Positions 42,555 through 47,497 of a stretch of DNA of 64,000 nucleotides are shown here, one piece after another. The position numbers and the translations under genes were made by a program. Source of the stretch: an uncultured Gemmatimonadales bacterium (GTDB taxonomy: Bacteria > Gemmatimonadota > Gemmatimonadetes > Longimicrobiales > RSA9). The stretch spans positions 1-64,000 of the forward strand of contig CAWFKH010000001.1 of assembly GCA_963816355.1 (NCBI GenBank), read 5' to 3'. Below the pieces are notes generated by a model. It was not told the origin of the DNA. It ran no database searches and was given only the letters and a program-made list of their open reading frames with translations. Numbering within the stretch: the stretch's first letter is position 1; each line of letters begins with the position of its first letter.

Positions 42555-43346
42555 TCAGCGCAGCGACAGCGTCACGCCGGCCAGCAGCCGCGCATCGTCC
42601 GGCCGCAGATCCGCGGGCGGCCGGCTGTCCCGCCGCCACTCGAGCGAGAGCTGCACGCCCACCCCGTGCGCGACCGCGACGTCCAGCCCCGCGTCGCTCA
42701 GCACGCGGTAATCCGCCGGCGCCCGCAGCCGCGGCTGGAAGTACAGCACCTCCGTCGCGCTCACGCCCGGCCGCAGATCGAGCGTACCCGCGACGATGCC
42801 GTCCAGCCGCGTCGTTCGCTCCCGCGCGCGCTCCCCCGGCGCCAGCCGCGACGCGTCCAGCCGCTCCCACTCCAGCATCGCGCCCACCCCCGCGTCCACG
42901 CGCCCGCCCGCCCCCGCCGCCAGCCGGCGCCGCACGCCGCTCCCCACCAGCACGCGCCGCTCGAGCAGCAGCCGCGCGTTCGACTGCACCTGCACGAAGT
43001 GGAACGTGCGCCAGCGCCGCGTCAGGAAGTAGCTGTAGCGGAGGTGCACGTAACGGTTGTCCACGAGCCGCTCGCCGCCCCGCTGCTGCAGGTAGTCCGC
43101 GCCCGCGAACAGCCGCACCCAGTGACGCGCCGCGCGGTAAGCCGCCCCGGCGCTCACCGACGCCTGCGCCACCCGCGTGTTGCCCGCGCTCACGCTGCCC
43201 GTGCCCGCGAAGTCGAGCTGCGCCCCCATCACCGTGTCCGACTGCAGCCGCTCCACGTTCAGGATGCTCTGGCCGCGCGCCCCGGCCGCGACTCCGAGCA
43301 GCAGGACGACGGCGGCGGCGCACGCCGCCGTGGCACTCGCCTGCAT
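42555..43346 (-). CDS. DUF481-like outer-membrane protein
   Basis: Signal peptide, ILNVE, AGNT, YFQP; beta-strand pattern. Confidence 0.65.
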   Translation of the reverse strand: MQASATAACAAAVVLLLGVAAGARGQSILNVERLQSDTVMGAQLDFAGTGSVSAGNTRVAQASVSAGAAYRAARHWVRLFAGADYLQQRGGERLVDNRYVHLRYSYFLTRRWRTFHFVQVQSNARLLLERRVLVGSGVRRRLAAGAGGRVDAGVGAMLEWERLDASRLAPGERARERTTRLDGIVAGTLDLRPGVSATEVLYFQPRLRAPADYRVLSDAGLDVAVAHGVGVQLSLEWRRDSRPPADLRPDDARLLAGVTLSLR

Positions 43347-43463
43347 CCGCTCCCTCCTCTTCCGACGCTGCACCCCTGGACGCCGCCCGCGCCCGCGCTC
43401 ACCTTCCCCCGCGTCCCGCTGTCACGGGAACCCGATCGCTCCCCGCTCGATTGCGATGGCACG

Positions 43464-44186
43464 ATGCACACGTTCGCCTCGATCCTCGCCGGCGGCCTTG
43501 CCGACGACCTGCAGCGGCACCCGCTGCTGGCCCTCGGCACGCTCTTCGGCGCCGGCGTGCTGACCAGCCTCACGCCGTGCATCTACCCGATGATCCCGAT
43601 CACCATCGGCGTCATCGGCGGGAGCGCGGCCGCGGACCGCACACGCCGCCGCACCGTCCTGCTCACGCTCACCTACGCCGCCGGGCTCGCGCTCCTCTAC
43701 GCGCTGCTCGGGCTGCTCGCCGGGCTGACCGGATCCCTCTTCGGCACCATCAGCGCCAACCCGTGGGCGCGCTTCGCCACCGCCAACCTGCTCCTCCTCT
43801 TCGGCCTGGCGATGCTCGACGTGTTCCCCCTCGCCGCGCCCGCCCGCCTCGTCGCCTGGGCCGGCCGCCTCGGCGGCGGCTCCTTCCCCGCCGTCTTCCT
43901 GCTCGGCGCCACATCCGGCCTCGTCGCCGCGCCCTGCGGCGCGCCCGCGTTCGCCGCCGTCCTCACCTGGGTCGCCGGACAGGGGAGCCCCGCGCTCGGA
44001 TTCGTGTATCTCTTCGTGTTCTCGCTCGGGATGACCGCGCTGCTCATCGTCGCCGGCATCTTCTCCGGCTCGCTCGCGCGCCTGCCGCGCGCCGGCCGCT
44101 GGACCCTCTGGGTCAAGCGGATCGCCGGCGTCGTCCTGATCGGGATGGCGGAATACTACTTCATTCAGATGGGAATGGTACTGTGA
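43464..44186 (+). CDS. ccdA: CcdA/DsbD transmembrane disulfide transporter
   Basis: SLTPCIYPMIP and APCGAP with six TM segments. Confidence 0.88.
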   Translation: MHTFASILAGGLADDLQRHPLLALGTLFGAGVLTSLTPCIYPMIPITIGVIGGSAAADRTRRRTVLLTLTYAAGLALLYALLGLLAGLTGSLFGTISANPWARFATANLLLLFGLAMLDVFPLAAPARLVAWAGRLGGGSFPAVFLLGATSGLVAAPCGAPAFAAVLTWVAGQGSPALGFVYLFVFSLGMTALLIVAGIFSGSLARLPRAGRWTLWVKRIAGVVLIGMAEYYFIQMGMVL

Positions 44187-44800
44187 TCGGATCCAGAATC
44201 GACAGGCCCGAATCGACCGGGACGTCGCCCGAATCGACCGGGACGTCGCCCGAATCGATCGGGACGTCGCCCGAATCGACGCGCCGCCTCGCCGGCGCCG
44301 CGCGCCTCGCGCTCGGCGCGCTCCTCGCCGCCGCCTTCACCGCCGCGCCGGCCGCGCTGCGCGCCCAGGACATCGGCCTCGACGTCGGCACCGCCCCGCC
44401 GGCCGTCACCATCGAGGACCTGCAGGGCAACGCCGTCGACCTCGGCGCCTACGTCGGCAAGCGGCCCGTCCTCCTCGAGTTCTGGGCCACCTGGTGCCCC
44501 ATCTGCAAGGCGCTCGCGCCGCGCATCGAGGCCGCCCACCGCCGCTTCGGCGACCGCGTCGACTTCCTCGTCGTCGCCGTCGCCGTCAACGAGACGCCGC
44601 GCTCGATCCGCCGCCACCTGGCGAAGAACCCGGTGCCCGGCACGGTGCTGTGGGACGTCGACGGCCGCGCCACGCGCGCCTTCGACGCCCCCACCACCTC
44701 CTACGTCGTCGTGCTCGACCGCGCCGGCCGCGTCAGCTACACGGGCAGCGGCAGCGACCAGGACCTGGAGGGCGCGCTGGCGAAGGTCGCCGGCGGCTGA
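44183..44800 (+). CDS. TlpA family thiol-disulfide reductase
   Basis: EFWATWCPIC; GTGA overlap with ccdA. Confidence 0.88.
   Translation: MIGSRIDRPESTGTSPESTGTSPESIGTSPESTRRLAGAARLALGALLAAAFTAAPAALRAQDIGLDVGTAPPAVTIEDLQGNAVDLGAYVGKRPVLLEFWATWCPICKALAPRIEAAHRRFGDRVDFLVVAVAVNETPRSIRRHLAKNPVPGTVLWDVDGRATRAFDAPTTSYVVVLDRAGRVSYTGSGSDQDLEGALAKVAGG
44207..44280 (+). repeat. 21-bp tandem repeat, about 3.5 copies
   Basis: cccgaatcga(c/t)cgggacgtcg, encoding PESTGTS. Confidence 0.9.
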
Positions 44801-44845
44801 GGCGAGCGCTCCGCCGAGCGCGCCCGGGACCCGGACCGACGGCGC

Positions 44846-45469
44846 TCAGCCGCCGCCCGCGCTGTCCGGCGGCACGAGCCGATCGAGCGCCGCACCCAGC
44901 TCCTTGTACGCGGTCGGATCGATCTCGCGGAACGGCGTCGCCGTGTAGGCGATCTTCCCGTCCGGCCCCACCACATACAGGTTGCGGTTCGTGAGGTCCG
45001 GCCGCTGCGGGAAGACGGCGCCGTACGCGCGGCCGACCACCGCGCCGCTGTCGCTCGCCATGAGGAAGGGGAACTCGTCGTCGCGGGCCCACGACGCGAG
45101 ATCGGCGGGCGAGTCCGTGCTGATCGCGATGAGCACGATCCCGTGGCCGTCGTGGAAGAGCTGCGCGTACTGATCACGGTACGCGTGCATTTGGATCGTT
45201 CAGCCCTTCGTCCGCGCGCGCACGAAGAAGGACAGCACGACCGTCTTCCCCTTGTAGTCGCTGAGCCGCACCGGCTCCGCCAGCACCCCCCAGCGCGTCG
45301 CCCCCGGCATGCTGAAGTCCGGCGCGACGTCGCCCGCCTGCAGCGGCTTCACGTCCACCTTCGCCGGCGCGGCTCCGCCCTGCTGCGCCAGCGCCGGCGA
45401 CGGCGCGCCCAGCGCCGCCGCGACGCCTCCGGCCGCCAGCCAACCGAGCAGCTTCGCTCTCCCTCTCAT
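44846..45469 (-). CDS. Exported peroxiredoxin-like (BCP/PrxQ-type) selenoprotein; UGA at 45202-45200 read as Sec
   Basis: ORFs 45200..45628 and 44846..45190 are in one frame, joined by TGA-ACG-ATC-CAA; APDF..LSDYKGKTVVLSFF..T-K-G-U-T; SECIS-like stem downstream. Confidence 0.85.
45164..45185 (-). promoter_or_regulatory. Candidate bacterial SECIS element
   Basis: CGCGUAC-CGUGAUCA-GUACGCG; the stem follows the UGA after a 14-nt gap. Confidence 0.7.
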
Positions 45470-45593
45470 CGCATTCCTCCTGTGACGTTCGGCCCTCGCG
45501 CGGCCGAGCGGCCGCGCGAGAAAGTTCGGTCCGCGCCCAACATACGCGCCCTCGCCGGCACCCGCGAACCGCGCCCGCGAGACGCGACTCGCC

Positions 45594-46838
45594 TCACGCC
45601 ACGCCGCCGTCGCGCGCCTCCTGCGCAATCCGCCCGCCGCCCCCGGGGTTCCCCTCCTCCTCCAGCTCGCCTCGCTGCGCTTCCTCGGGCGGCACCGCCA
45701 CGCGCCGCGCGACGAGCACGTCAGTCGAGGAATGCACGACGATCGACGCGGCGATCACGACGGCGGCGAGCTGGAACACCTTCCCGGCCTGCTCGGCGCC
45801 GCTGCGCAGGACGAGGATCGCGAAGACGACGGAGGCGAACCCCTTCGGTCCGAACCACGCGGCGACGAGCTTCTCCTTGCGCGAGAGGCGGCTGCCCAGG
45901 AGCGCAATGCCGATCGCCAGCGGCCGCGCGACCACCAGCGCGAGCCCCACGAAGGCCAGCTCCGCCAGGCCGAAACCCTGAAAGAGCCGCCCCGCGAGCA
46001 GCGTCCCGAAGAGCAGCACGCCGGCGAACTTGAGCAGGTCCGCGATCCCCTCGCCGAACTCCCGGAACGCCTTCGAGAACCGACCGCCGGTCGAGCTGAG
46101 CGTGGCCCCCGCCGCGAACGCGGCCAGGAACTCGTTGGCGTGCAGCAGCCCGGCCGTCGCGTAGACGATCATCGCCACCGCGACCGCCACGAAGCGCTGG
46201 TACGCGTCGCTCACGCCGAGGAAGCGGAAGCCGGTGACGCGCACGGCGCACCACGCGATCGCGACGCCGACGGCGAGACCCGCCGCGACCGAGCCGGCGA
46301 GCCGGAACGCGAGCGAGCTCGTGTCGTAGGTGGCCAGGATGCCGAGCACGATCGGCAGCGCCAGGCCGTCGTTCAGCCCGCTCTCCACGTTCAGCAGGTG
46401 GCGCAGCCGCCATGGCACCTCCGCCCGCTGCACGAGCGCCGCCGCGAAGACCGGGTCCGTCGGCGAGAGGACGGCGCCCAGGAGGAACGCTTCCCGCCAG
46501 CGCACTCCGACCACCACGTGCGCCGCCAGCGCCGTGAGGCCCAGCGTCAGCGGCATGCCGACCAGCAGCGCGCGACCCGGCGCCCGCCAGCCGCGCCGCA
46601 GGTCGTCCAGCCCGGTGCGCGTGCCGTCCGTGAAGAGGACGCTGAAGAGGACGATCTGCGCCAGGTAGCGCACCGACGCGGCGTCCGCCCTCACCCGCAC
46701 CAGGCCGAAGCCGCCGCCGCCCACCAGCCAGCCCGCCACGAGGAAGACCACCGCCGAGGAGACGATGCTCCGCCGCGAGTAGTCCGAGACGATCGCGGCA
46801 AGGAAGAGGGCCAGCGCGAATGCGAGTACGGCGGTCAT
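45594..46838 (-). CDS. Cation:proton antiporter (CPA1/NhaP-like)
   Basis: LSPTDPV, ESGLNDG, WFGPKG. Confidence 0.9.
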   Translation of the reverse strand: MTAVLAFALALFLAAIVSDYSRRSIVSSAVVFLVAGWLVGGGGFGLVRVRADAASVRYLAQIVLFSVLFTDGTRTGLDDLRRGWRAPGRALLVGMPLTLGLTALAAHVVVGVRWREAFLLGAVLSPTDPVFAAALVQRAEVPWRLRHLLNVESGLNDGLALPIVLGILATYDTSSLAFRLAGSVAAGLAVGVAIAWCAVRVTGFRFLGVSDAYQRFVAVAVAMIVYATAGLLHANEFLAAFAAGATLSSTGGRFSKAFREFGEGIADLLKFAGVLLFGTLLAGRLFQGFGLAELAFVGLALVVARPLAIGIALLGSRLSRKEKLVAAWFGPKGFASVVFAILVLRSGAEQAGKVFQLAAVVIAASIVVHSSTDVLVARRVAVPPEEAQRGELEEEGNPGGGGRIAQEARDGGVA

Positions 46839-46921
46839 GGCACCGGCGCTTCCGGTGCAAGCTCCAATCCACGCGCCGGGCGTGCGGCCCTACGCGCCGC
46901 CCAGCGAGCGCCGCTCCCCGC

Positions 46922-47497
46922 CTACCCGCCGCCCGCCAGCCGCGCGAAGTGCGCCTTGCGCAGCTTCGCGATCTTCGGCTCGATCACCAGCCGGCAGTAC
47001 GACTGCTCCGGGTTGCGCCGGAAGTACTCGCGGTGGTACGCCTCCGCCGCATAAAACGCCTCCAGCGGTGCGACCTCCGTCACGATCGGCCCCCGCCACG
47101 TGCCCGCCCGCTCCAGCTCCGCGATCGCCGACTCCGCCGCCTCGCGCTGCTCCGGCGTGTGGTAGAAGATCGCCGAGCGGTACTGCGTGCCGACATCCGC
47201 CCCTTGCCGGTTCGGCGTCGTCGGGTCGTGGATCGTGAAGAAGACGTCGAGCAGGTCGCGGTAGCTCACCACCGCCGCGTCGAACCGCACCTGGACCGCC
47301 TCCGCGTGCCCGGTCCCGCCGCCGCACACCTGCCGGTACGTCGGGTTCGCCACCGTGCCGCCGGTGTAGCCGGATACCACCGACTCCACCCCGCGGATCA
47401 GCTCGAACGCCGCTTCCAGGCACCAGAAGCAGCCGCCCGCCAGCGTCGCCGTCTCCAGCGCCCGCTCCTCCACTCGCCCTCCCTCGCTCCCGTCCAT
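46922..47497 (-). CDS. msrA: Peptide-methionine (S)-S-oxide reductase
   Basis: GGCFWC, GHAEAV, HDPT..NRQGADVGTQYRS, AEAYH. Confidence 0.95.
   Translation of the reverse strand: MDGSEGGRVEERALETATLAGGCFWCLEAAFELIRGVESVVSGYTGGTVANPTYRQVCGGGTGHAEAVQVRFDAAVVSYRDLLDVFFTIHDPTTPNRQGADVGTQYRSAIFYHTPEQREAAESAIAELERAGTWRGPIVTEVAPLEAFYAAEAYHREYFRRNPEQSYCRLVIEPKIAKLRKAHFARLAGGG

Follow-up and report, generated by a model that had tools for sequence, protein, structure and literature searches.

A predicted exported selenocysteine peroxiredoxin of Gemmatimonadota with ccdA-TlpA neighbours and a probable recurrent coupling of selenocysteine to loss of the active-site proline

Results

Organization of the locus

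The window, i.e., the whole stretch of 64,000 nucleotides analysed here, carries a peroxiredoxin gene of 207 codons plus a stop codon at 44846..45469 on the minus strand, a strand that the original prediction did not give. A GGAGG ribosome-binding site, read from the sequence (45476..45480, minus), lies 6 nt before its ATG. As had been proposed, two open reading frames join in frame across a single TGA: the upstream one ends at 45200 and the downstream one runs from 45190 to 44846. The TGA is codon 90 of 207 (45200..45202, minus), stands in the context FFVRARTKG-TGA-TIQM and occupies the peroxidatic position, where we infer selenocysteine (Sec). No Cys occurs anywhere in the 207-residue translation of 45469-44846. 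The claim that the Thr before the UGA and the downstream Arg are kept also holds: these are Thr87, the Thr of TxxU, and Arg162 in TNRNLYVV (44984..44986, minus), the conserved catalytic Arg of peroxiredoxins. Arg162 is conserved in 246/246 sequences and Thr87 is Thr or Ser in 244/246, while the preceding Arg86 is invariant in the lineage (246/246; Arg86 and Thr87 at 45209..45214, minus). Val83 (45221..45223, minus) takes the Pro position of Pxxx(T/S)xxC in an alignment to 2ywn and 2cx3. By eye, the N-terminus resembles a signal peptide of the Sec type, predicted to cover residues 1-28 (45386..45469, minus) and to end in Ala-Leu-Ala (ALA|QQ), in agreement with the earlier claim of export.

A SECIS-like hairpin (45164..45185, minus) follows 14 nt after the UGA. 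It has the 7-bp stem that had been described (CGCGUAC/GUACGCG) and an 8-nt loop, CGUGAUCA, with G at loop position 2, and it is the minimum free energy hairpin. Convergent with the peroxiredoxin gene, on the plus strand, lie a ccdA gene (43464..44186), whose product consists of the DsbD transmembrane domain alone and has both Cys motifs (PF02683, E 6e-44; start inferred), and a gene for a TlpA/ResA-like thioredoxin (44183..44800) with a WCPIC motif and an export-like N-terminus. The TlpA start codon is placed by its overlap with the ccdA stop codon. Within the TlpA frame, at 44200-44290 on the plus strand, a PESTGTS repeat of about four copies precedes the signal-like stretch.

There was no real match to Rfam within 43000-47000, and a promoter scan at the locus found none. 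One terminator-like match inside the coding region was taken as a chance match. A search for RNA runs containing this DNA found none, which speaks neither for nor against expression. A single DNA run, X1 (share 0.09), gave only scattered short pieces over the locus; one 151-bp contig from it spans 45167-45317 including the TGA with 0 differences, at low depth and possibly not independent of the source.

Peroxiredoxin fold and the missing resolving residue

Read through the UGA, the protein has TxxU and matches PF00578 (AhpC/TSA; E 7e-28) at 97.5 bits against a cut-off of 26, and codon 90 aligns with the peroxidatic Cys of BCP structures. The fold model, in which Cys was folded in place of Sec, is confident (pLDDT 88.9) except for residues 1-30. 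In it, residue 90 lies at the first turn of the helix that residues 88-99 form. The top matches, both in sequence and in a Foldseek search with the model, are BCP, Bcp4 and AhpE; BCP and AhpE structures match about equally, and the fold is BCP/PrxQ- or AhpE-like. Among the best-matching structures (2ywn, 2cx3, 3hjp and 1xxu), identity is 25-29% for 3hjp, 2ywn and 1xxu. The protein differs from these BCP/PrxQ and AhpE proteins in having Sec, no Pro and a signal peptide. It stays under every NCBIfam cut-off, PrxU included, and the best NCBIfam match is PRK09437 with 62 bits against 140. PrxU of Eubacterium acidaminophilum, reportedly described by Sohling in 2001, also has Sec at the peroxidatic position. 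However, its NCBIfam profile (NF040737) is longer, with 233 positions, and the Sec peroxiredoxin scores only 54.1 against a cut-off of 270.

Under the strict definition of a peroxiredoxin, Thr or Ser at -3 and the distal Arg are present (Thr87 and Arg162), and the Pro of Pxxx(T/S)xxC is absent. Because this Pro is called "absolutely conserved" in the accessible text of PMC4749874, strict membership fails at Val83. The lack of a resolving residue, also part of the original prediction, extends to the whole lineage, in which none of 126 Sec cores holds a Cys. Thus, resolution must come from outside. Members of the BCP/PrxQ and AhpE groups without a resolving Cys are known, according to the available part of PMC4749874.

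UGA codon, hairpin and selA in related genomes

Of 61 relatives, 43 have a match to the protein, as do 235 of the 301 genomes from the class and 88 of the 121 in a phylum sample; the 17 genomes of three families outside the class have none. Its named relatives are Gemmatimonadota. At the catalytic codon, 169 homologous loci have TGA (134) or TGC/TGT (35) and no other codon, which is the Cys/UGA correspondence that had been suggested as a check; since the loci combine top hits with rows chosen by hand to cover the listed matches without a stop and a range of families, the ratio of TGA to Cys among them is not representative. Removal of 9 duplicates and a single cyanobacterial row, with 14 distant Cys paralogues set apart, left 126 TGA genes to be compared with 19 Cys orthologues. 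Among database proteins, four that carry Trp or Leu at the Sec position were excluded as likely code-4 calls or errors. The rule of TGA or Cys at this codon holds in proteins down to about 45% identity.

The hairpin follows the TGA. Its 20-nt core is exact in 115 of the 126 TGA genes and present with at most two mismatches in all 126, whereas it occurs in neither form in the 19 Cys orthologues. All six inner pairs are kept in 125/126 TGA genes and in 1/19 Cys orthologues. Since the hairpin forces it, the TGA genes use a rare codon: the loop codon is CGT in 121/126 of them, compared with 93 of the 1232 Arg codons elsewhere in the same genes. Covariation of the stem, another check proposed earlier, is seen at the closing pair, which swaps among C-G, U-A and G-C and is able to pair in 98/126 genes against a mean of 52 and a maximum of 67 in permutations that ignore kinship. 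The hairpin is therefore conserved with UGA only and lost in 19/19 Cys orthologues. Its stability by itself is weak evidence: the folding z-score of the single hairpin is -0.01 to -1.2 relative to shuffled sequences, which is not unusual, and 840 of the 61,291 TGA triplets of the genome (1.4%) precede a comparable 7-bp stem. We take the hairpin as real because it is conserved across homologues. Its place directly downstream of the UGA and its small, G-containing apical loop agree with the feature of bacterial selenoprotein genes described in the accessible part of PMC1088965.

A search for selA in 80 genomes found it in 38 of 38 TGA-bearing genomes but in only 1 of 17 genomes whose only orthologue has Cys; the remaining 25 have a distant paralogue only or no match. 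The pattern of codon, hairpin and selA fits the prediction of Sec decoding and not a nonsense mutation. We are highly confident, from these comparisons, that UGA90 would be decoded as Sec and that this is a real selenoprotein gene. A genome without Sec machinery, together with homologues that have neither Cys nor UGA, had been named as the sign of a pseudogene; here, both the machinery and the Cys/UGA correspondence are present.

Some genomes hold more than one gene of this kind. Cys and Sec copies stand in tandem in one genome (G231:C19:42149-43191; L111 and L112), and another (G150) has one Cys and one Sec copy on separate contigs. Such paired copies are possibly a backup for low selenium. 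In addition, a second group of exported single-Cys peroxiredoxins with 33-47% identity occurs in the same class (L098 and L117-L129), in some genomes beside the Sec gene.

Selenocysteine machinery of the source genome

The source genome (3.85 Mb, 97% complete) has all four of selA, selB, selC and selD, for which a search had been advised. The selA match has an E value of 3e-139, tRNA-Sec (selC) scores 68 bits with anticodon TCA, and for selB the C-terminal domain was matched. SelD is itself a selenoprotein gene and carries its own in-frame TGA in GAG-U-ACK. At the selD locus (G000:C1:251924-252844, minus), a 7-bp hairpin after the TGA is unlike that of the peroxiredoxin gene. The selB gene is frameshifted in the assembly and lies in two frames (C3:884040-885305 and 885410-886045, within G000:C3:884040-886048), with the break in an Ala-rich low-complexity linker ahead of the SECIS-binding domain. 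Elsewhere in this genome, 21 tRNA genes are arrayed within about 3 kb (G000:C6:406157-409191, minus).

Position 83 and the catalytic residue

The motif PxxxTxxU is described as highly conserved in the available text of a 2026 review (PMC13188914). The original prediction noted Val in place of the usual Pro as a feature of this gene. Val83 is confirmed, but as one case of a loss of Pro throughout the lineage, usually to Phe or Tyr, that is tied to Sec. Pro occurs in 6/126 Sec members compared with 119/120 Cys members. No other column tells Sec from Cys nearly as well: the separation is 0.94 at column 83 and 0.44 at the next one. In the Sec members, position 83 is Phe in 78, Tyr in 36, Pro in 6 and other residues in the rest, and the non-Pro residues are nearly confined to aromatic or beta-branched ones. 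Cys without Pro is found in 1/102 Cys proteins and, in a wider set, in 5/76 Cys peroxiredoxins.

In trees from which the catalytic site, the Pro position and the residues encoded by the hairpin had been masked, several well-supported nodes place Cys/Pro rows next to Sec/non-Pro rows. The careful tree, of 54 rows picked after larger quick trees had been seen, has 17 Cys/Sec changes and 16 Pro changes; among its 9 starred independent pairs about 8 are concordant and 0 opposite (p about 0.008). The larger quick trees have only 4-5 starred pairs (p 0.25). AU tests reject a single clade for the Pro rows (p 9e-7) and for the Cys rows (p 2e-74), and weakly for the 10 nearest Cys rows (p 0.03). On this phylogenetic evidence, the repeated coupling of Sec and Pro in the lineage is probably real. 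Since the hairpin is near-identical in all Sec rows, Sec appears to be ancestral and Cys secondary in the lineage, and thus Pro was most likely regained repeatedly.

Six Sec members keep Pro (L138, L139, L140, L143, L145 and L112; family f8), five of which share a clade with a Cys member. They provide a control from nature for Sec combined with Pro. One protein, P0073, has Cys with Phe at the Pro site and sits on a short branch among Sec rows; this is either a very recent change from Sec to Cys before the return of Pro or a sequence error.

Outside the lineage, 56 of 60 scorable Sec peroxiredoxins keep Pro (scored by eye in part 19 of 59 of the GOS file, with 3 entries excluded). Thus, a general rule that Sec means no Pro was rejected; Sec permits but does not demand the loss. 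As judged from these sequences, Cys nearly demands Pro and Sec only allows Pro to be lost. Three Sec peroxiredoxin entries of another lineage in the same part (PMC2398784, supplement 3, part 19) are also without Pro, possibly an independent case of Pro loss. Two of these have a long C-terminal extension like the phosphatase fusions described in the accessible part of PMC2398784.

Export and the CcdA-TlpA neighbours

A hydrophobic N-terminal stretch is present in 125 of the 126 TGA homologues by a heuristic of our own, which upstream reading can fool, and the Ala-Gln junction (A28 and Q29) is invariant in alignment A1. The protein is predicted to be exported, and the exported form appears to be conserved in the lineage.

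The adjacent ccdA-TlpA pair was absent from the original prediction. Across 79 loci without duplicates, a set weighted towards close homologues and with flanks of 1.5-4 kb, the neighbours of the peroxiredoxin gene include TlpA in 58 and ccdA in 54; TlpA was not seen within these flanks in the other 21. The pair is convergent with the peroxiredoxin gene in the source genome, where they do not form one operon, and it is co-oriented upstream of the gene in some loci (L033 and L091), so that there are two arrangements overall. Pairs of the ccdA-TlpA type often serve cytochrome c maturation. By analogy and from the conserved neighbourhood, we suggest that CcdA-TlpA is likely the reductant supply of the Sec peroxiredoxin. 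That the protein is a predicted exported peroxidase recycled by CcdA-TlpA is, in our judgement, a reasonably likely reading of the locus.

Discussion

We propose the following cycle for this protein. SelB bound to the hairpin would deliver Sec-tRNA to codon 90, a step for which the comparative evidence is strong, and the predicted signal peptide would then export the protein. Sec90, together with Thr87 and Arg162, would attack H2O2 or an organic peroxide to give a selenenic acid, as expected from the family. Since a resolving Cys is missing, the CxxC of TlpA may reduce Sec90 via a mixed selenenyl-sulfide, and CcdA may re-reduce TlpA from the cytoplasm; both steps are suggested by synteny and by the precedent of PprX. 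The selenolate would tolerate loss of the active-site Pro, which may be why lineages back at Cys carry Pro again. Taken as a whole, a single-selenol exported peroxiredoxin that reduces peroxides in the cell envelope is the explanation that we favor, with fair confidence, from the sequence comparisons.

The kind of selenoprotein is already known. Sec peroxiredoxins ('Prx', PF00578, TxxU) are a catalogued family, as seen in the available parts of the Sargasso 2005 (PMC1088965) and GOS 2008 (PMC2398784) studies and of a review (PMC13188914), and they share with the protein described here TxxU at the peroxidatic site and a downstream bacterial SECIS. Nor can the gene be called a hidden selenoprotein, as it had been, because a member of the same lineage, AACY01587908, is already listed as 'Peroxiredoxin' in Sargasso 2005 (PMC1088965); the GOS 2008 file (PMC2398784) contains its AYRDQY motif three times. 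In the accessible text of these catalogues, the entries of the same lineage begin after the signal peptide and are given without a taxon, and export, the missing Pro and the neighbours are not remarked on. Some other Sec peroxiredoxin entries of GOS seem, by eye, to carry signal peptides.

The closest functional precedent is PprX of Caulobacter crescentus. According to the available portion of PMC3322552, ScsB-TlpA feeds this periplasmic peroxiredoxin and ccdA partly complements scsB. PprX is an exported BCP/PrxQ-like protein whose thioredoxin-like donor is supplied by a membrane protein of the DsbD family, an arrangement like the one proposed here. However, it has Cys, the full PxxxTxxC motif and, as described, a resolving Cys outside the standard positions. 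It is partnered in the membrane by ScsB, whereas CcdA is found beside the Sec peroxiredoxin, and that source reports it in proteobacteria and cyanobacteria. A literature search, which most subscription papers lay outside, found no publication on Gemmatimonadota or exported Sec peroxiredoxins, on ccdA-TlpA neighbours of Sec peroxiredoxins, or on Pro substitution or Sec/Pro coupling. Export, the ccdA-TlpA adjacency and the Sec-Pro coupling were thus not found in the literature searched. A work by Nelson from 2011 is said to tabulate active-site conservation and may report Pro exceptions.

The loss of Pro in Sec members could be neutral drift under relaxed constraint, or an effect on mRNA or translation close to the UGA, rather than a chemical adaptation, with only the return of Pro together with Cys being selected, and we rate the chances of this at slightly under even. 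In its favor, several different residues occupy position 83, and most other Sec peroxiredoxins keep Pro; on the other side stand the near-confinement of the site to aromatic or beta-branched residues and the three Pro-less entries of another GOS lineage. This reading concerns Pro only and is compatible with the proposed decoding, export, peroxide attack and reduction by TlpA and CcdA. A more specific idea is that selenium has reshaped the active site, Pro having been given up in this lineage because a non-Pro residue 83 frees a backbone N-H near Sec90, so that the selenenic acid could be trapped as a reversible Se-N bond. Such trapping has been reported for GPx1 and GPx4 in the accessible part of PMC8533274, and by this analogy we regard it as a speculative and rather doubtful possibility here. 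If it were true, the bond would do the work of the absent resolving Cys until TlpA reaches the enzyme in the oxidising periplasm. Every return to Cys, of which there would have been many, would then require that Pro be regained through two base changes from Phe or Tyr.

Alternatively, the gene could encode a real exported selenoprotein that acts as a redox relay or sensor to envelope thiols or draws on another reductant, with ccdA-TlpA serving cytochrome c maturation. The loss of Pro and the extra invariant Arg86 would suit such a role, as would the convergent orientation of ccdA-TlpA and the loci in which TlpA was not seen. In addition, pprX deletion in Caulobacter gave no peroxide sensitivity, according to the available text of PMC3322552. 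Yet Thr and Arg are kept, the Cys orthologues have the complete PxxxTxxC, and the neighbourhood is kept in most loci in two arrangements, and so we consider a relay or sensor unlikely and peroxide reduction fed by CcdA-TlpA the better account.

The split selB raises the further question of whether a true selenoprotein gene of the lineage is silent in the source organism since selB is really broken there. However, among 36 family relatives, selB is in one frame in 29, split in 1, interrupted by contig ends in 2 and without a match in 4, and the sole other split (G035, a few-contig assembly) shifts in the opposite direction in the same low-complexity linker. Frame changes between another assembly (G032) and that of the source also affect 3 of 69 control genes, and selA, selC, the selD TGA and the hairpin are intact. 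Two genomes (G013 and G021, 85% and 62% complete) have the TGA gene but no selB match. The frameshift is probably an assembly slip, and a silent gene is very unlikely. That the TGA is a true stop, so that the locus would be a nonsense pseudogene or would encode two separate small proteins, the second restarting at Met94, is hardly credible: gene callers do split there (among 149 representatives, residue 89 is the last in 16 and residue 94 the first in 35) and 114-aa fragments are present in NCBI, but solely TGA or Cys stands at the catalytic codon in proteins to about 45% identity, the hairpin and selA follow the TGA, and 4/126 TGA genes have no ATG at codon 94.

The gene matches in 235/301 genomes of a class that is common in soil and sea, yet gene callers split it. 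Annotation therefore lacks what is probably a near-core defence enzyme of the envelope, as well as CcdA-TlpA as its likely supply line. Being nearly invariant, the hairpin is well suited as a marker for work on SECIS elements. The roles of selenium and of the invariant Pro are usually probed with engineered mutants. Here, nature offers repeated pairs of Sec/non-Pro and Cys/Pro proteins at 60-70% identity, a test of what selenium adds. With these natural pairs, the four-way comparison of Sec or Cys with Pro or Phe is directly testable.
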